The notes under the pieces are model-generated. The model did not search any database, was not told the origin of the DNA, and saw only the letters and a list, made by a program, of their open reading frames with translations. Position numbers and translations under genes: made by a program. From a virus (Duplodnaviria; Heunggongvirae; Uroviricota; Caudoviricetes): a DNA stretch of 64,000 nucleotides. Positions 30,779 to 45,869 of this stretch are shown here, piece after piece (within the stretch, counting starts at the first letter, position 1; every line of letters begins with the position of its first letter). Where the stretch lies: IMG/VR virus record IMGVR_UViG_2541047680_000004. One strand, given 5' to 3'.

Positions 30779-31165
30779 ATGTCTGATAACAAGATTGAAT
30801 TTATAGAAAGTCGCTACGCTGCTTTTATCGCAGGGTTGATTGAATCCTCACCTATGAGCCAGTCCCAGATAGCCAAAACAATTGGGTATAAAAACGCCAA
30901 CAACCTTTCTTTAATTAAAAGCGGCAAAATTCCTTTGCCTATCGATAAGGTTCGTCCGCTGGCGCTGGCACTGGGTATTGAGCCAAGTCGTCTTATGATG
31001 ATGGTGCTGGAAGAACGCCAACCCGAACTCGCAGCATTTTTATACAAAGAAGGCACTGCTCCTCTTAACGAGGACGAAAAACAGGTTCTTGCTGCATATA
31101 ACGAGCGATTCGGTAAAGAGAAAGGCGCATCACAAAAGGTTGTTGAGGCCATAAAGTCTCTATGA
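30779..31165 (+). CDS. helix-turn-helix transcriptional regulator (XRE/Cro-CI-like)
   Basis: SQSQIAKTIGYKNANNLSLIKSGK HTH motif; plus-strand gene with palindromic motif A (ggtaagcacttacc) about 40 nt upstream. Confidence 0.6.
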   Translation: MSDNKIEFIESRYAAFIAGLIESSPMSQSQIAKTIGYKNANNLSLIKSGKIPLPIDKVRPLALALGIEPSRLMMMVLEERQPELAAFLYKEGTAPLNEDEKQVLAAYNERFGKEKGASQKVVEAIKSL

Positions 31166-32263
31166 AAAATTTACACGAATAAGCTCTGTTGATAGACGAT
31201 CTCCCTTAAATTTGTGGTCAATTTCGTCTAAATCCGGTTGCTCTACGATTGATGCGATGTACGTCGAGAAACTTTCTAAGGCGTCTCGCATCTCGTCCAT
31301 ATAATCGTGCCGGTCGTAGACCCGATCTATCCCCTCAAGACTGTGGTTCATGATTTTACGTGATACCTCCTGGCTTATGCCTAATGCTGGGAAGTAACTA
31401 CGCGCAGTACGGCGCAAATCTCGGGGTGTAAATGGCTCAAGCTCCATCAGTTCTGGTCGTTCCAGAATACGACGTAATGCCTGGGCTATTGCCACTTTAG
31501 ACATAGGAAGGTCTTTCCCGATTTTTTTATTCGAAGGCACGAGCCACTGGCTGTCTTTACCGTATTCGAACAACTCTTCAATGCATGTGCGCATTAATGT
31601 GCTTAAAGGCAGCGAATGCTCACGTGCTGACTTGTTTCTCTTGCCTTGATTCCAAACCCCACGCTTAAGATTGAACTCACTTTTTTTAGCCCGCAGTACT
31701 TCGTCAGGTCGTCTTGCTGATACAAGACACAGTCTGGCCGCCCATTTTGTACCAGCGCACACATTGAAGTAGTCCCATATATTCCAGAACACCCATACCT
31801 CTGCGTCAGTCAGCTTCCGCTCGCGGGGCGTGGGCTTTGCGCCACCGGCAACTTTGTTAAGTGACATATCGTTTAACGGTGACACGTCTATCATCCCCTG
31901 GAAGGCGCACCAGCTAAGGAACTGCTTCATCAGAGAGAAAACGCGGCGGCCCATAACAATTTTGCCATCCAGTATTAGTGGGTTGACCAGTTGGTTCACC
32001 ATGAACCTATTAATGTCACTTACTTTTACATCGGCAATGTGCGGCAAAACATGTATCAAAATACAATGAACAGCGATCTCTGGCCGACGTCTGGTTATCA
32101 GCAGAGATAAGCGAGTGAATAACAGGAATGCGTCCGAGAATCTCATGTCATTGCTGACCTGGGAGATCATAACGGCCTGCATTTGAGATGCTCTTTCGAG
32201 ATACTCTATCGCCTCTTTTGAGGTGTTCTCCGCAGCGCGTGCTCTGTCAAAGCTATTTTTCAT
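31160..32263 (-). CDS. tyrosine site-specific recombinase (integrase/Cre/Xer family)
   Basis: C-terminal catalytic signature: R..PDEVLR, HSLP, PRDLRRTARSY (box II), IMNHS, VYDRHDY (nucleophile Tyr). Confidence 0.75.
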   Translation of the reverse strand: MKNSFDRARAAENTSKEAIEYLERASQMQAVMISQVSNDMRFSDAFLLFTRLSLLITRRRPEIAVHCILIHVLPHIADVKVSDINRFMVNQLVNPLILDGKIVMGRRVFSLMKQFLSWCAFQGMIDVSPLNDMSLNKVAGGAKPTPRERKLTDAEVWVFWNIWDYFNVCAGTKWAARLCLVSARRPDEVLRAKKSEFNLKRGVWNQGKRNKSAREHSLPLSTLMRTCIEELFEYGKDSQWLVPSNKKIGKDLPMSKVAIAQALRRILERPELMELEPFTPRDLRRTARSYFPALGISQEVSRKIMNHSLEGIDRVYDRHDYMDEMRDALESFSTYIASIVEQPDLDEIDHKFKGDRLSTELIRVNFS

Positions 32264-32893: not shown

Positions 32894-34156
32894 ATGCCTT
32901 TTTTAATTTTCATTATTATACTACTGCTCACCGTGATTTTTTGGGATTGGGTTGTTTTAAATGGTCAAATTGTTGGAACATTGGCTACAGCATTTGCTTT
33001 TATAGCAACAGCATGGAATGCCTACGAAGCGAGAAAAAGTGCAAAAGCAGCTTTTTCAGCCCTTCAATTAACAACAGAATCATTGTTCGAAATGCGAAAG
33101 AGTGCATTTAAACAATGGTTTGATTCCTTATTAAATCAACATGATGAGCTATGTCTTCTTGCAAAACAAATTATCGATAAACGCAAAATTAATTTAAACA
33201 GCGATGAGTTACATAGACTATATTACCCATTGGTAAAACAGCATGAGGTAATACAGTATGTGAAGCATATTATTAATATTTTTGAGTATGTGGATAGTTC
33301 ATTTTATATTGATGGGGAATGTCTAAAGGAAAAAAGAGCGTATGTGTCACAATTAATTTTCAAAATCCCACCTCAGATGAAGTTGATCATTGCTATCTTT
33401 GGATTAAAGATCGATTATTGTGAACATATTAATTCGGGAAAACTGTGTTGTTTATTAAATAAATATGATTTTTTCAATGATGAAATATTTTTTGATGATG
33501 CTTATTCAGATATGCCTTATCTGGATGCATTCATAAACCTTAGATTCAACAAAATATTCAAATCTCGAATGATAAATTATTTTGATAATATCATTAAAAG
33601 TTATTATGTTCCATCGGACGTTAAAAGGGACTGGATGTTTCGAGACCCAAAGCTCGTACCGTCGGTTCTTATGAATTATAAAACTCCTTGTTCTCCTATA
33701 ATTAATGATTACTTTGAGAAGTTGCCTTTACATGTAAGAAACTACTTTGAGGAACTACTTAAAACCGCGAATGATAGAGTTACTCATTTTGACGTTTACA
33801 TCCCACGCCTTATTGGTTGTTCAATCGTGCAACATTACGAAGATGTGCCTTCCGAAAAAAACAGGTTAAATGACAGGAATGATGTAATAGCTATGGCTGA
33901 AGATTACATCGAGAAAAGAAAATCTAATCAACTAGATTACATACTTGAAGATATATACTTCAAGAGTGACGAAGATATAATCCCAGGCCACCATTTGATT
34001 GTGGCATTTGATGACTATGAATTTAAATTATCACTCATTAAGATAAATGAGAATAAAGATAGCGATAATCTTTTAAATCGAATTTATACTGAATCCAGTA
34101 GCATGGTTAAAGAATATAAGCGCGAAATATTAAAACTGGGCGACTATGTAAAGTAA
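32894..34156 (+). CDS. AT-rich membrane-anchored hypothetical protein (candidate accessory/defence-type gene)
   Basis: 420-aa ORF on the opposite strand to its neighbours; two N-terminal hydrophobic helices; sequence visibly more AT-rich than flanking genes; own terminator downstream. Confidence 0.5.
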   Translation: MPFLIFIIILLLTVIFWDWVVLNGQIVGTLATAFAFIATAWNAYEARKSAKAAFSALQLTTESLFEMRKSAFKQWFDSLLNQHDELCLLAKQIIDKRKINLNSDELHRLYYPLVKQHEVIQYVKHIINIFEYVDSSFYIDGECLKEKRAYVSQLIFKIPPQMKLIIAIFGLKIDYCEHINSGKLCCLLNKYDFFNDEIFFDDAYSDMPYLDAFINLRFNKIFKSRMINYFDNIIKSYYVPSDVKRDWMFRDPKLVPSVLMNYKTPCSPIINDYFEKLPLHVRNYFEELLKTANDRVTHFDVYIPRLIGCSIVQHYEDVPSEKNRLNDRNDVIAMAEDYIEKRKSNQLDYILEDIYFKSDEDIIPGHHLIVAFDDYEFKLSLIKINENKDSDNLLNRIYTESSSMVKEYKREILKLGDYVK

Positions 34157-34174
34157 ATTGCACTGTTCAACAAA

Positions 34175-34200
34175 AAAGGGGCCGAAGCCCCTTTGAATTT
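34175..34200 (+). terminator. rho-independent terminator
   Basis: aaggggc-cgaa-gcccctt hairpin followed by tgaatttt. Confidence 0.55.
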
Positions 34201-34348
34201 TGCGCTGAAAAAAGTGTTGCTAGGATGTTAGCAAGCTATGGTTAAGAACGTCTGCCGTAATTATCTATCACAGCGTTGAGCGGTCTGGTTTATGTTAGCG
34301 GAGTCTTAATCGAGTTGATTAAAAGGCCAAACCGCTCAACGCTGTGTC

Positions 34349-34435
34349 TGGCGGAGAGTAATGGAATCGAACCATCATCGTTTGCACAATGGGACGGTTT
34401 TCAAGACCGCTTGAGCACCATGCTCCCTACTCTCC
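34349..34435 (-). tRNA. tRNA-Ser (anticodon UGA), long variable arm
   Basis: Manual fold of the reverse complement: acceptor ggagagt/actctcc, anticodon loop cuUGAaa, T-arm ggttcgattcc, encoded CCA; about 87 nt. Confidence 0.6.
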
Positions 34436-34755
34436 AGCTATTGTGATGGTCGGTGCTGAACTCCGACACAGGGTTGTAGCAAGCCCCGCAAAGCGCGCAC
34501 TACTGTAGTTGCGGCACATCAGCCTGTGCATTCATCACAATGGTAAGATCACTACCTTTCGACCAGTCATTGTGCACATGAACGACGATTAACCGTAATG
34601 ATATTATCGTTGTGTTGTGAAGCCAGATGCTTATCTTCTGGTTGCTTCAAAGAGCTGCACTTCCTCACAACGGTAAGAGCACTGGTCTGACTCTATCGAT
34701 TTACGGCCTTGTGGGTCAGTATCGCCGATTCGCCCAATGCTCTTACCTGTTGTGT

Positions 34756-34831
34756 TGGTGCCGGTTAACGGACTTGAACCGCTGGCCATTCGCTTACAAA
34801 ACGACTGCTCTACCAACTGAGCTAAACCGGC
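34756..34831 (-). tRNA. tRNA-Thr (anticodon UGU)
   Basis: Reverse complement gccggtttagctcagttggtagagc ... ttUGUaa ... ggttcaagtcc ... aaccggcacca; one mismatch at the top of the anticodon stem. Confidence 0.55.
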
Positions 34832-34835
34832 AATT

Positions 34836-34922
34836 TGGTGGGGAGTGATGGAGTCGAACCACCCGAGTCGCCATGACAGTAGATTTACAGTCTACACCGC
34901 TACCTCTACGGACTAACTCCCC
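34836..34922 (-). tRNA. tRNA-Tyr (anticodon GUA), long variable arm
   Basis: Reverse complement ggggagt ... actGUAaatc ... ggttcgactcc ... actccccacca. Confidence 0.6.
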
Positions 34923-34927
34923 TAAAT

Positions 34928-35002
34928 TGGCGATGGTGGGTGGATTCGAACCACCGACCAGTTGGTTAACAGCCAACTGCTCTACCGCTGAGCTACACCA
35001 TC
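34928..35002 (-). tRNA. tRNA-Asn (anticodon GUU)
   Basis: Reverse complement gatggtgtagctcagcggtagagc ... ctGUUaa ... ggttcgaatcc ... caccatcgcca. Confidence 0.65.
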
Positions 35003-35780
35003 AATTCAGCACTGCCAGTATTTATTACTCAACAGTGCCAATCGCGACGGTTTAGTTTCTGCCAGGAAACGCACCGCTACTTGCACTTTTCGTTAGTGCC
35101 AGACGCTTTCGACTTCGCTCAATAGTAGAAGGCAAAATCTTTAAGTAGATGATGTTTCTGAGGACAGCACCTACTTTGTAATTTATACAATGTGATGTAT
35201 GGAATCATTTGTTGTGAAAACAGGCACCAATGGCAACAGTGGTTAAACCTACACAACAATCCCGTCTTCACAACGTTGAGGCCACTACTCCGATTGAATG
35301 TTTGCCCAACATGTTACATATCAACGCTCGCCGGTATCTCTGTGAATAGAACCTTAGAATTGATAAAAATGTAATGGCCTCAACGTTGTGTGCTGGCTAA
35401 CCATACCAGCCGGGCTACGTCGCCGCTTTTTAACCCAGTATAAACGACATAATTGAACAAAATGACGTAACAGGATGGGCGGTCAGTGGCTAAGAATCCG
35501 GGAGTCATATGGAGTTGAAAATATACCAACCGCCCATTCTGTTACTTCATCGGAGGGAACATGAATGTTCCCTCCTGCGTTCTGCAATCACACTCGCTCA
35601 GTGTGTCCCATTTCGGTAACGAGGCTGGAAACTGACCTCGCTGGTGTTTGGCTTATTAGGCTACTGCCAGATAGACTTCTTCGTTTGCACTTGTATTTAA
35701 GTTCAAACAGTCGCGTCTCAACGAAAACAAAGTCATCTTATACACAAAAGATAAGTAAGTAAATACTTATCATTGTATTT

Positions 35781-36071
35781 TTATTCGGTTGTGACTTTTT
35801 TGATCAAGGCCACTCTACGACTAGGTGTTCTTGTGATGGTGGCAGTGAATCGTTTCGCCTGGATAGTAATGGTTTCGTTCTCCTTAAGTTGCCCGTAGCG
35901 AGTTTCCACCAGGGTGCCAAGACGCCACAGACCATCATCGATACGTTTATGACTAGCAAATTTAATCAGCAACAGTTTTACGACTAACTGACCTACGTAA
36001 AAGGCGAATGCGACTCCGGCCGCTAAGAAATAGGTGGCCAACCACCAGTCCCAAGAAGTTAAATTGCTCAT
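35781..36071 (-). CDS. small membrane-anchored hypothetical protein
   Basis: 96-aa ORF with N-terminal hydrophobic helix. Confidence 0.35.
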   Translation of the reverse strand: MSNLTSWDWWLATYFLAAGVAFAFYVGQLVVKLLLIKFASHKRIDDGLWRLGTLVETRYGQLKENETITIQAKRFTATITRTPSRRVALIKKVTTE

Positions 36072-44530: not shown

Positions 44531-44795
44531 CTGGTAGGTAGTTACTTACTTATCACGATGGACGGATGATAGCGACTGGTGTCAGTTTTTGGAAGTGAAA
44601 ACGGAAGGGAGTTGTTCTGGTGGTGTCTTTTAAAAGACCTGCTTCCGTATATATTTAATAAGTTACTTATTATTTATATACAGAAACAGGCTCCTAATGG
44701 ATACCAAGAACAACATAATTTGACTCCAACTCCAGATGCTATGTCATTGACAGATTTATCAAGGGAGATCATGTTAGAATTAGTGTTTTAGCCTC

Positions 44796-45869
44796 GTGGA
44801 TATTGTCACCATGCGCATGAATAGACTTCCAGGATATGGCCTTCCCGAACTGGCTTTTTGGCCTCAGCCTAAATATGAACGGAATAAATGGTCGATGTTC
44901 TGTCTGAAACTCCGTAATGATGGAACCCTTGCTTGGTATCGGCGATATGTTGATCGTGGTATGCCAAACCACGCTGTTGATGACGACTACGATAACTATC
45001 CTGAAGCAAGAAAAGCGGCATTAGAGCTGAATAAAAACGTGAGCTTTGACATTGAAAAACTTCCTCTATCTATGTTTCAAAAGAAGTCATTGCGTTTGAA
45101 AGTTGACAAAGCACTCAAAGCCAAATCACGTCTCATGGATGAAGAGTATATAATGCTCAACGAAGCAATTAAGGCACACGCCAACGATCCGCGAGTGACA
45201 TTAAATGAGTTAATAATTAACCCAGATTACGAAACTTTGCGTCAACCCCTTTTTGACGTGCTAAGCGAGATGCCTTACTTACATTTTGTTTTTCTTCCCA
45301 AATTCCAAGTTTCACTTCAACTCGTTGCTCCTAACACTTGGGAATGTTCATATAACAACAAAGCTAAGACAGCGAAGATCTGCTACCAAGAACGCATAGC
45401 CAGAGGTTTTGGTTTATCAGGTGCTGCACATTGGGGAAAAACAAAAGCGACTATTCGCTCAATGCTTCTGCCGCGTGCTAACCGGTTACTGCAACTCGCC
45501 AGCGTAAAAAGAATGCTGGATGAAGCTCTCAGGAATGGGCAAAAGGTACTGGTTGTTGGCAACTTTGTTTTCTGGTTTGAGGACAAAAATCAGGTAGGTT
45601 GGAGTGTTAAAGTTGCTAGCGAAAGCGAAACCACCTCAAGAGGCAATACGCTCTGGAAAGAAGGAACTATCATTTCAAAAAATCACGGTCGAATTGTCGT
45701 GCTGCCGTATACAAAAGAAAACGGTAAACATGTAAAAGGTTATACCAAGAATGCCCCTAACGACGGCAATGCAATTCCTAGACATAAGGATGAGTATGTT
45801 GAGTTGCCCTTTGAAATTTTGGATGGTGACTTGATGTTCAGTCTGTTCGGTGAGCTTAACTACGAATAG
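44796..45869 (+). CDS. hypothetical protein (plus-strand insert)
   Basis: 357-aa ORF on the opposite strand to the surrounding replication and partition genes. Confidence 0.45.
   Translation: MDIVTMRMNRLPGYGLPELAFWPQPKYERNKWSMFCLKLRNDGTLAWYRRYVDRGMPNHAVDDDYDNYPEARKAALELNKNVSFDIEKLPLSMFQKKSLRLKVDKALKAKSRLMDEEYIMLNEAIKAHANDPRVTLNELIINPDYETLRQPLFDVLSEMPYLHFVFLPKFQVSLQLVAPNTWECSYNNKAKTAKICYQERIARGFGLSGAAHWGKTKATIRSMLLPRANRLLQLASVKRMLDEALRNGQKVLVVGNFVFWFEDKNQVGWSVKVASESETTSRGNTLWKEGTIISKNHGRIVVLPYTKENGKHVKGYTKNAPNDGNAIPRHKDEYVELPFEILDGDLMFSLFGELNYE

Follow-up and report, generated by a model that had tools for sequence, protein, structure and literature searches.

A long hairpin beside a phage tRNA-Ser belongs to a widespread family of RNA stems and is a candidate RNase III processing site

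Directly downstream of a tRNA-Ser gene in a 64,000-nucleotide (nt) stretch of phage DNA (IMG/VR record IMGVR_UViG_2541047680_000004; this whole stretch is hereafter the window) lies a long hairpin, here named H-A, which is a real and selected RNA structure. When the hairpin was noted earlier, in a reading made from the sequence alone, its wider kinship went unseen; it is one member of a widespread family of hairpins. This family itself, its occurrence in lambda-, P22-, P1- and SSU5-like phages alike and the combination of an invariant stem with variable interiors appear to be undescribed. Our favoured reading, to which we give roughly an even chance, is that H-A would serve as a processing hairpin for host RNase III, freeing tRNA-Ser from the terminator-bearing trailer of its transcript.

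The H-A hairpin and its family

The sequence-only reading had described a long near-perfect hairpin at 34268-34346, with a stem of about 22 base pairs (bp). The hairpin is confirmed: the inverted-repeat search recovers two arms of 20 nt, at 34269-34288 and 34327-34346, which are 95% complementary and 38 nt apart, and the first 16 bp of the stem are all Watson-Crick. The figure of about 22 bp is reached only if T.G pairs of the plus strand are counted, and the tRNA strand gives 20 bp. The sole mismatch falls at position 17, where the minus (tRNA) strand has U.G and the plus strand C.A. As RNA, the minus strand reaches -41.2 kcal/mol (z = -9.6; none of 200 shuffles was equally stable) and forms a 20-bp stem with one U.G pair, within which lie a small A/U-rich hairpin and an unpaired stretch of 15 nt. 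Across the 64-kb window, only H-A and a second site at 35269-35390 contain a perfect inverted repeat of 16 bp or more with a loop no longer than 130 nt, and none arose in 200 first-order Markov resamples. The plus strand of this single sequence folds with similar stability (-43.1 kcal/mol), so folding energy leaves the strand of H-A undecided, and we set it aside as uninformative on that choice. Also borne out were the statements that the hairpin abuts the 3' end of tRNA-Ser (H-A begins 2 nt past the CCA, as called by ARAGORN), that it lacks a clean U-run on the tRNA strand (a distinct terminator sits at 34194-34175) and that it is not a tRNA (neither ARAGORN nor Rfam calls one at the hairpin).

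The tRNA regions of related phages contain several long stems each, with related arms, from which we defined the family as a stem of 19-20 bp whose 5' arm starts CACARC and whose 3' arm ends GYUGUG, with about 14 bp between these ends and a variable interior. Among the arms are CACAGCGUUGAGCGGUUUGG, found in H-A; CACAACGUUGAGAACACUGG, found in phages D6, P7 and P1; CACAACGUUGAGGCCAUUAC, found in the window paralogue H-0; and CACAAC-A-GGUAAGRGYAUU.., found in the window paralogue H-B and many other members. A rule-based scan of the whole window returned exactly four members, H-0, H-B, H-C and H-A, all at 34.2-35.4 kb on the minus strand (Table 1). H-A, H-0 and H-B share a position-17 pair that reads U.G on the tRNA strand and would read C.A on its complement, and H-C is too degenerate to judge. 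An inverted repeat at 34671-34747, singled out by the sequence-only reading, proved to be the core of the 20-bp H-B stem at 34754-34666. Outside the window, the pattern ACAACRGGTAAGRGYAYT was matched in 107 distinct versions, which come from at least 120 viral contigs, most of them prophages some 40 kb long. One Escherichia coli prophage carries the element between its Q antiterminator gene and its holin gene. The phage lambda member (44787-44862) starts 6 nt downstream of the T-run in tR', the 6S RNA terminator, and lies about 320 nt upstream of S. Among species-representative genomes, members with a paired 3' arm were found in Serratia, Yersinia, Rahnella, Pantoea, Klebsiella, Pectobacterium, Kluyvera and Superficieibacter. 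Neither of the K-12 prophages DLP12 and Qin has the element, so published RNase III maps of K-12 are unusable for this family.

Exact copies of the lambda late leader were also found in assemblies labelled Pseudomonas, Psychrobacter, Algoriphagus, Tardiphaga, Oceanobacillus, Segatella and others (contigs L198, L203, L220, L225, L230, L248, L249, L259, L263 and others); for these copies in unrelated organisms contaminating lambda DNA is the likeliest explanation.

Variation among members bears directly on whether the stem works as RNA. In the lambda-type stems (84 distinct members), which have 19-20 bp and an A bulged past CACAAC, a U.U mismatch occupies position 9 in 57 members and U-A in 25, and position 17 is U.G in 69, U-A in 11 and C-G in four. 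Read on the sense strand, these stems contain 119 G.U pairs versus 17 A.C mismatches. Such asymmetry, together with the constant sense orientation of the members, argues for RNA rather than DNA and supports the view that H-A acts as RNA on the tRNA strand. Next came an alignment of 68 distinct stems from every type, in which GAAA stood in for the interiors. Paired cells make up 93.3% of this alignment (a figure inflated by the way 3' arms were chosen, as discussed below), versus 85.8% in shuffles and 33-61% when the partner was slid; two-sided changes affect nine of the 20 pairs, in 97 cells, and none of 500 shuffles matched the alignment in any of five measures. Position 17 is U.G in 51 stems, U-A in nine and C-G in eight, position 18 is U-A in 67 of the 68, and position 11 is A-U in every one.

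H-A fits this pattern. Its stem, CACAGC...GCUGUG, is paired on the minus strand at 20 of 20 positions, stands in register with the 67 other stems and carries U.G at position 17 and U-A at position 18, as most of the family does. H-A, H-0 and the D6-type members have no bulged A and share the inner sequence GUUGAG, and H-B has the bulge; the bulged A and the U.U or U-A at position 9 are thus marks of the lambda subtype and not of the whole family. Scored with a position-specific scoring matrix built from 56 lambda-type stems only, H-A reaches 1.9 bits, versus a mean of -83 for stems with shuffled pair order, of which one in 20000 reaches the H-A score; intermediate stem types outscore H-A and link the types. 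Judged by register and score, H-A is a member of the family, and its most divergent type.

Comparison of H-A with its orthologues reveals how unevenly the hairpin is conserved. Thirteen distinct versions, from plasmids of E. coli, Klebsiella and Salmonella, have a nearly invariant stem, whose pairs differ by a compensatory replacement of G-C with A-U, a replacement of U.G with U-A and one of G-C with G.U, each seen once; the two Salmonella copies, which have no upstream tRNA-Ser, contain two mismatches. The interior is almost wholly different between genera, except that an A/U hairpin of 5-8 bp with a 5-nt loop is kept, followed by GACUCCGC; in Klebsiella this small hairpin is maintained with other sequence (UUUUC..GAAAA). 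This layout, in which the inner hairpin is followed by 7-8 nt resembling the acceptor strand at the 3' end of the adjacent tRNA-Ser (CUCUCCGCCA), may be the relic of a tRNA 3' half.

Interiors across the family are still more diverse, falling into about 49 crude classes of 29-150 nt among the 79 distinct members that are at most 200 nt long. A canonical T-arm (G-UUCRANN-C with a stem of at least 4 bp) occurs in 13 of these 79 members, in seven classes, when 0.05 would be expected from shuffles; the H-A interior has none. Some interiors are tRNA-derived, with D- and T-arms and no anticodon arm, the family stem taking the place of the acceptor stem, as in P1/D6 and in locus L276 (tRNA-Glu-like). 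No true tRNA was found inside any family stem. One interior class is shared between a position behind tRNA-Thr in P1-like phages and a position behind tR' in lambdoid phages.

Position and flanks follow rules of their own. In P1-like phages and in the window a stem starts 1 nt past the CCA of tRNA-Thr, and most copies in lambdoid phages follow the T-run of a terminator, that of tR' ending 6 nt before the stem, with no tRNA nearby. The 3' flank usually starts GUGAAU, AUGAAG or CUGAAU, and in 41 of 131 occurrences GUGAAU is followed by a hairpin GCRCA-GGCUGA-UGYGC with a covarying 5-bp stem; any likeness of this GGCUGA-loop hairpin to boxB is superficial only. When the last six bases of the 3' arm and three bases of flank were used as a query, their reverse complement (at least 8 of 9 matching) was found 43-203 nt downstream in 44 of 75 distinct contexts, versus about three expected. 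The two partners covary (GUUGUGCUG with CAGCACAAC, GUUGUGGUG with CACCACAAC), which implies that the helix closing the next module is in competition with the hairpin base. These downstream modules often end in a T-arm and a CCACCA-like 3' end, and ARAGORN calls none of them.

Post-hairpin modules in some late leaders of P22-like and lambdoid phages (L016 2936-2994, L026 2092-2260 and L134 5100-5240) gave weak matches, of 16-23 bits, to transfer-messenger RNA (tmRNA) families. They show a 7-bp acceptor-like helix, a D-arm-like hairpin, an insert of about 75 nt, a T-arm and an ACC-like tail; ARAGORN calls neither tRNA nor tmRNA in them.

Existing annotation passes over the family. No Rfam family reaches its gathering threshold on any hairpin in the window and 19 loci, and no match up to an E-value of 10 lies on the hairpins of the window region, lambda and seven prophage loci. 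The GenBank and RefSeq records of lambda hold no feature at the hairpin, and the P1 and D6 records likewise carry no annotation there. Searches by arm sequence or keyword matched no paper, in a literature set with few subscription journals. In lambda (L135), orf-64 (44621-44815) overlaps the 6S RNA, tR' and the 5' arm of the hairpin. In P1 (L002, NC_005856; 2876-3445), upl and plp ('putative lipoprotein') lie antisense to tRNA-Thr and two family hairpins, in the ban operon transcript, and may be spurious calls of open reading frames (ORFs) over structured RNA.

Proposed RNase III processing and the competing accounts

RNase III cuts double-stranded RNA (dsRNA) of two turns at the joints between RNA units, in rRNA operons and in transcripts of T7 and lambda. 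From a structure, strand, family and set of positions that are established we infer the enzyme, the cleavage and the cut site in H-A. Minus-strand transcription would pass tRNA-Ser and H-A on its way to the terminators, and the arms of H-A would pair during transcription to form two turns of dsRNA, which host RNase III would bind and cut; our guess at the cut site is near the junction past CACARC, at stem positions 6-9. The cut would part tRNA-Ser from a 175-nt trailer with the terminator hairpins, which would be discarded, and a tail of about 8-12 nt left on tRNA-Ser would be trimmed to the CCA by host exonucleases, the upper stem and interior (about 55-60 nt) being released. H-0, H-B and H-C would have the same role at other joints of the transcript, and the homologous hairpin of lambda would serve to cut the 6S/tR' leader off the late message. 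On this scheme the stems of the family would punctuate the lytic-cycle transcripts of enterobacterial temperate phages.

Several observations are consistent with such a role. H-A is oriented on the sense strand of four tRNAs, just past one CCA and upstream of a terminator. To our knowledge, lambda-, P22-, P1- and SSU5-like phages share little gene content; the spread of the family over these four kinds, whose common feature is the host order, makes a host factor likelier than a phage factor. The title of a 1988 paper (Daniels, Subbarao, Blattner and Lozeron, Virology 167:568; cited in PMC7547250) speaks of RNase III sites in the late transcript of lambda, and within the late-leader sequence read, the only long stem noted was 44787-44862. 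The length of H-A, 20 bp with one wobble, matches the two turns (20-22 bp) of an RNase III substrate, the enzyme accommodating about 22 bp (PMC6212723). A minimal substrate is described as having 6 nt below the cut and an 11-bp helix, with a distal box of U-A and U.G pairs adjoining the loop and a proximal box in which A-U is preferred at position 2 and G-C blocks binding (PMC1540722). The family stem is built of 6 bp (CACAAC), a bulge and 13-14 bp, with U.G at 17 and U-A at 18 adjacent near the top and the invariant A-U at 11, a fit to RNase III substrate geometry that we regard as suggestive, not exact.

Against RNase III processing weigh the following points. The link to the lambda RNase III sites rests on that title and on inference, and the presence of the sites within 44787-44862 is unconfirmed. 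The order of U.G and U-A in the family is opposite to that in the minimal substrate as we reconstruct it; the register is ambiguous, and one register would put an invariant G-C beside the scissile bond, where catalysis is suppressed. The stem of H-A is near-identical between E. coli and Klebsiella while the interior has diverged, and RNase III needs less sequence specificity than this, which suggests an extra sequence constraint or frequent recombination. Because the 3' arms in our alignment were picked for best complementarity, the percentage paired is inflated, the double changes not being inflated likewise. Long, structured, hypervariable and often T-arm-bearing interiors are left unexplained by an RNase III model, and cleavage is a prediction for every member.

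The interiors are the starting point for a different account, in which the stem is a scaffold, with a role like that of a primary microRNA stem, and the interior a functional, variable small RNA aimed at host or defence factors, one possibility being a tRNA-elbow mimic or decoy. We consider this unlikely, though it would be compatible with cleavage by RNase III. It would explain why one stem design carries some 49 interior classes of 29-150 nt, why T-arms are so enriched (13 of 79 members versus 0.05 expected), why tRNA-like interiors such as those of P1/D6 and L276 lack an anticodon arm, why H-A keeps its small hairpin and GACUCCGC across genera as the rest changes, and why one interior class recurs downstream of a tRNA in P1-like phages and of tR' in lambdoid ones. 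The putative effector, however, has no known target, partner or phenotype; no interior matches Rfam, that of H-A has no T-arm, and interiors may be decaying tRNA remnants retained since their deletion would break the stem. Taken further, the family might be an expression platform, in which an RNase III-cut invariant stem releases hypervariable small RNAs during lytic growth, many of them tRNA-elbow mimics without an anticodon that would act as decoys or modulators of host tRNA-directed enzymes or defence nucleases; diversity would then reflect an arms race, with the H-A cargo (small hairpin and GACUCCGC) as one effector. This extension strikes us as rather unlikely. By contrast with both accounts, the stem might not be cut at all and might act as a stability or insulation hairpin that blocks 3' exonucleases or keeps neighbouring tRNA folds apart with no endonuclease involved. 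Hairpins at 3' ends commonly protect RNA, and a stem of -41 kcal/mol stands right against the tRNA 3' end. A G-C pair acting as a catalytic antideterminant can allow RNase III to bind without cutting (PMC1540722). An unremoved stem 2 nt past the CCA would, on the other hand, block the exonucleolytic trimming that exposes the CCA; two terminator hairpins already protect the transcript, and a 3' barrier would have no obvious purpose in lambda, whose late message has the element on its 5' side. We therefore hold an uncut hairpin to be rather unlikely. The sequence-only reading had offered an RNA-processing or stability element as one possibility: its RNA role on the tRNA strand is upheld by the wobble asymmetry and covariation, and between its two alternatives we favour processing, at even chances, over the rather unlikely uncut form.

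The other possibility raised by that reading, a protein-binding palindrome, found no support. As a DNA element, H-A would be a cruciform or palindrome serving as a joint for module recombination, or a site for a dimeric protein, and some features of the region invite this view: it is mosaic, with tRNAs and hairpins that behave like cassettes, a variable gene island starts about 100 nt past H-A, a tyrosine recombinase gene lies about 2 kb off (31160-32263), and the arms of H-A are invariant among orthologues. Yet on the transcribed strand the mismatches take the form G.T and seldom A.C, a distinction that matters for RNA and not for duplex DNA, and the four window paralogues have different, self-pairing arms kept by compensatory change, which leaves no single sequence-specific protein to bind them. 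The arms are moreover 38-150 nt apart, unlike recombinase core sites, all members lie in the sense orientation of their transcript, and homology to phage Cyrano breaks at the terminator and not at the hairpin, all of which makes a DNA role very unlikely. Lower still we place an antitermination signal, in which the lambda-type 3' arm UGCUCUU(U/A) would be boxA-like and the small hairpin that often follows would stand for boxB. The core GCUCUUU/GCUCUUA matches the rrn boxA (UGCUCUUUAACAA) and the lambda nutR boxA (CGCUCUUA), the lambda-type arms UGCUCUUU or UGCUCUUA can be likened to boxA, and the frequent U.U mismatch at position 9 matches the U of the rrn type. GUGAAU with the covarying GGCUGA-loop hairpin follows in 41 of 131 occurrences, and an untranslated tRNA transcript would in general gain from protection against Rho. 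But H-A, H-0 and the D6 and P1 members keep their pairing without a boxA core, the boxA-like arm is sequestered by pairing over 20 bp (in H-A, too, the 3' arm, CGCUCAAC, is paired), and in the window GCTCTTTRA occurs once versus 1.6 expected and near matches to the rrn boxA number 28 versus 25.8 expected. Antitermination is thus a highly improbable function for H-A.

Other candidates were rejected. Neither ARAGORN, with introns and tmRNA allowed, nor Rfam finds a tRNA or tmRNA at the hairpins. An intrinsic terminator does not fit a 20-bp stem with a 38-nt interior and no U-run, the terminator being separate, and a self-cleaving ribozyme does not fit unrelated interiors with no conserved core and no Rfam match. 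From its sequence H-A is an unlikely RNase P substrate, with no NCCA past the 3' arm, no T-arm and a helix that runs on below the plausible cut. The letters GTTGAGC...GCTCAAC fit the R' and R'' sites of an integron attC in the wrong order, and other members lack them. The flanks show no target-site duplication typical of a miniature inverted-repeat transposable element, and orientation and genomic slot are constant. Against a YrlA/Y RNA stand the lack of a GNCGAA(N)G motif and of a T-arm in H-A, and the absence of rsr among the scanned neighbours.

Surroundings of H-A in the window

The coordinates of H-A and neighbouring features are collected in Table 1.

Table 1. Features of the H-A region; minus-strand features given as start-end are numbered in the direction of transcription where the larger number comes first
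Feature	Coordinates	Strand	Basis or remark
Hairpin H-A	34269..34346	minus	sequence, inverted-repeat search, fold, family scan
H-A 5' arm, CACAGCGUUGAGCGGUUUGG	34346-34327	minus	
H-A interior	34326-34289	minus	
H-A 3' arm, CCAGACCGCUCAACGCUGUG	34288-34269	minus	
Inner A/U-rich hairpin of H-A, UUUUAAUC-AACUC-GAUUAAGA	34304..34324	minus	fold
Conserved single-stranded motif GACUCCGC	34305-34298	minus	overlaps and extends past the 3' side of the inner hairpin
H-0, CACAACGUUGAGGCCAUUAC ... GUAGUGGCCUCAACGUUGUG	35390-35269	minus	family scan; 20-bp stem, 82-nt interior, U.G at 17
H-B, lambda-type, CACAAC-A-GGUAAGAGCAUUGG ... CCAGUGCUCUUACCGUUGUG	34754-34666	minus	inverted repeat, family scan
H-C, degenerate, CACAACGAUAAUAUCAUUAC ... 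GUAGUGAUCUUACCAUUGUG	34614-34536	minus	family scan; 3 mismatches
tRNA-Asn	35002-34928	minus	ARAGORN
tRNA-Tyr	34922-34836	minus	ARAGORN
tRNA-Thr	34831-34756	minus	ARAGORN
Gap between tRNA-Thr and tRNA-Ser, 320 nt	34436-34755	minus	
tRNA-like module, AUUGUGAUG (overlaps base of H-C) pairing with CAUCACAAU at 34449-34441	34436..34535	minus	sequence; no ARAGORN tRNA
Small hairpin GCACA-GGCUGA-UGUGC	34529-34514	minus	inside the tRNA-like module 34436-34535
tRNA-Ser(UGA)	34349-34435	minus	ARAGORN; CCA end 2 nt upstream of H-A
Weak terminator-like hairpin UUGCUA-ACAUCC-UAGCAA, then CAC and U6	34208..34234	minus	sequence, fold; not called by consensus scan
Intrinsic terminator AAAGGGGCUUCGGCCCCUUU, then U-run	34169..34194 (hairpin 34194-34175)	minus	consensus scan, fold
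420-aa A+T-rich ORF	32894-34156	plus	no Pfam match; weak PADLOC PtuB match, E = 9e-4

The tRNA region is bracketed by H-0, about 270 nt upstream of tRNA-Asn and found in about 30 related loci, and by H-A. H-B begins 1 nt past the CCA of tRNA-Thr, and a better-paired version of H-C occupies the equivalent site of phage CMS-2020a (L004). Between tRNA-Thr and tRNA-Ser the order is H-B, a module closed by GUUGUGAGG/CUUCACAAC, H-C, the module closed by AUUGUGAUG/CAUCACAAU, and tRNA-Ser; in these gap modules (34436-34665) each closing helix re-uses the GUUGUG base of the preceding hairpin. The sequence-only reading had suspected hidden small RNAs in this gap, and what the gap holds is two more copies of the same element and tRNA-like modules, none of them matched by Rfam or ARAGORN. 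At 34623-34655 on the minus strand, GCUCUUUGA is followed by a hairpin CCAGA-AGAUAAGCA-UCUGG, the commonest flank past the first hairpin in P1-like phages; GCUCUUUGA resembles the rrn boxA, and a single match in the window is not above chance. A 12-bp hairpin, UUGGCACUGUUG ... UGGCAGUGCUGA, lies directly upstream of tRNA-Asn (35006-35041, minus strand) and is kept in Cyrano and CMS-2020a.

The tRNA-Ser(UGA) is atypical and was missed by the Rfam tRNA model at its gathering threshold; its best Rfam match is tRNA-Sec at 44.8 bits, under the gathering score of 47. The D6 record remarks that tRNAscan-SE assigns no amino acid to the corresponding tRNA of that phage.

A consensus scan for terminators and promoters finds a sole terminator-like site in 33900-35900, the hairpin at 34194-34175, 75 nt past H-A; its 8-bp G+C-rich hairpin and U-run would end the tRNA transcript and also face the converging plus-strand ORF. 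The sequence directly 3' of H-A is AUAGAUAAUUACGG. The same scan finds no sigma-70-like promoter in 33900-35900, where 4.2 would be expected, which suggests that the region is probably one transcript started further upstream, behind the DNA ligase gene and small ORFs. H-A would be part of this transcript, as it shares the strand of the four tRNAs. Five nearby ORFs scanned with Pfam gave recombinase, glutaredoxin and ligase matches or none.

The region matches Escherichia phage Cyrano (= pLF82) and CMS-2020a and, more distantly, D6, P7 and P1. Judged by these matches, the window is a phage-plasmid of the SSU5/pLF82/Cyrano type. H-A is present in 431 plasmid records, mostly non-mobilizable and of about 110 kb, from E. 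coli (95-100% identity), Klebsiella (about 78%) and a few Salmonella and Cronobacter. Among mosaic relatives the tRNAs and hairpins are present or absent like cassettes. The variable island past H-A and the terminator holds AbiH in one Klebsiella plasmid and other hypothetical genes elsewhere; the slot of the 420-aa ORF is filled by AbiH or unrelated genes in Klebsiella and Salmonella relatives and is possibly a hotspot for defence genes.

Comparison with known systems

In murine gammaherpesvirus 68, tRNA-linked pre-microRNA hairpins are made via RNase Z and Dicer. The likeness to our family is in layout only, a tRNA or tRNA-like unit followed by a long hairpin that is freed at the tRNA 3' end. 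The hallmarks of YrlA and other Y RNAs are GNCGAA(N)G near the 5' end, conserved T and D stem-loops and rsr as a neighbouring gene (PMC4201824). Like YrlA (RF02553), the family has a long stem, formed by the ends, around a tRNA-like domain with a T-arm, and the YrlA order of T-arm, closed stem-loop and third element is seen in some members (L018, L026 and similar loci). Unlike YrlA, however, it has no GNCGAA, no conserved D stem-loop and no rsr nearby, and the only Rfam hit to YrlA falls on a true tRNA, at 15 bits.

The T4 tRNA cluster is matured by RNase P and 3' exonucleases, with a reported RNase III step upstream of tRNA-Gln, and also yields the stable RNAs C and D. There too, phage tRNAs are transcribed as one precursor with non-tRNA structured RNAs interspersed, but those RNAs have no known sequence relation to H-A and are not long perfect stems. 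Closer in design are the RNase III stems of rRNA operons and of T7 (R1.1 and others), which are also dsRNA of about 20 bp between the RNA units of a polycistronic transcript; the family recalls them in helix length, in the U.G beside U-A near the top and in the fixed inner A-U. They differ from it in having no common sequence and no invariant stem with a hypervariable interior. H-A itself is probably an ordinary processing signal. If the RNase III reading is true, maturation of phage tRNAs in P1-like and SSU5-like phage-plasmids would need an RNase III step provided by the host.

The nearest comparison is with the RNase III sites of the lambda late (pR') transcript. Lambda has a hairpin of the same family, which H-B matches over most of the stem and H-A to a significant degree; H-A departs from the lambda version in having neither the bulged A nor the U.U mismatch and in following a tRNA and not a terminator. 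If the favoured reading holds, the late messages of lambda and its kin, including Shiga-toxin phages, would lose their leader through a cut at the same element. Shiga-toxin genes sit in the phage late transcript. A covariance model of the element, which is absent from Rfam, would tidy hundreds of phage and plasmid records. Through the hairpin beside tRNA-Ser, an RNA family comes into view that is unannotated, easy to test and present in the best-studied phages.

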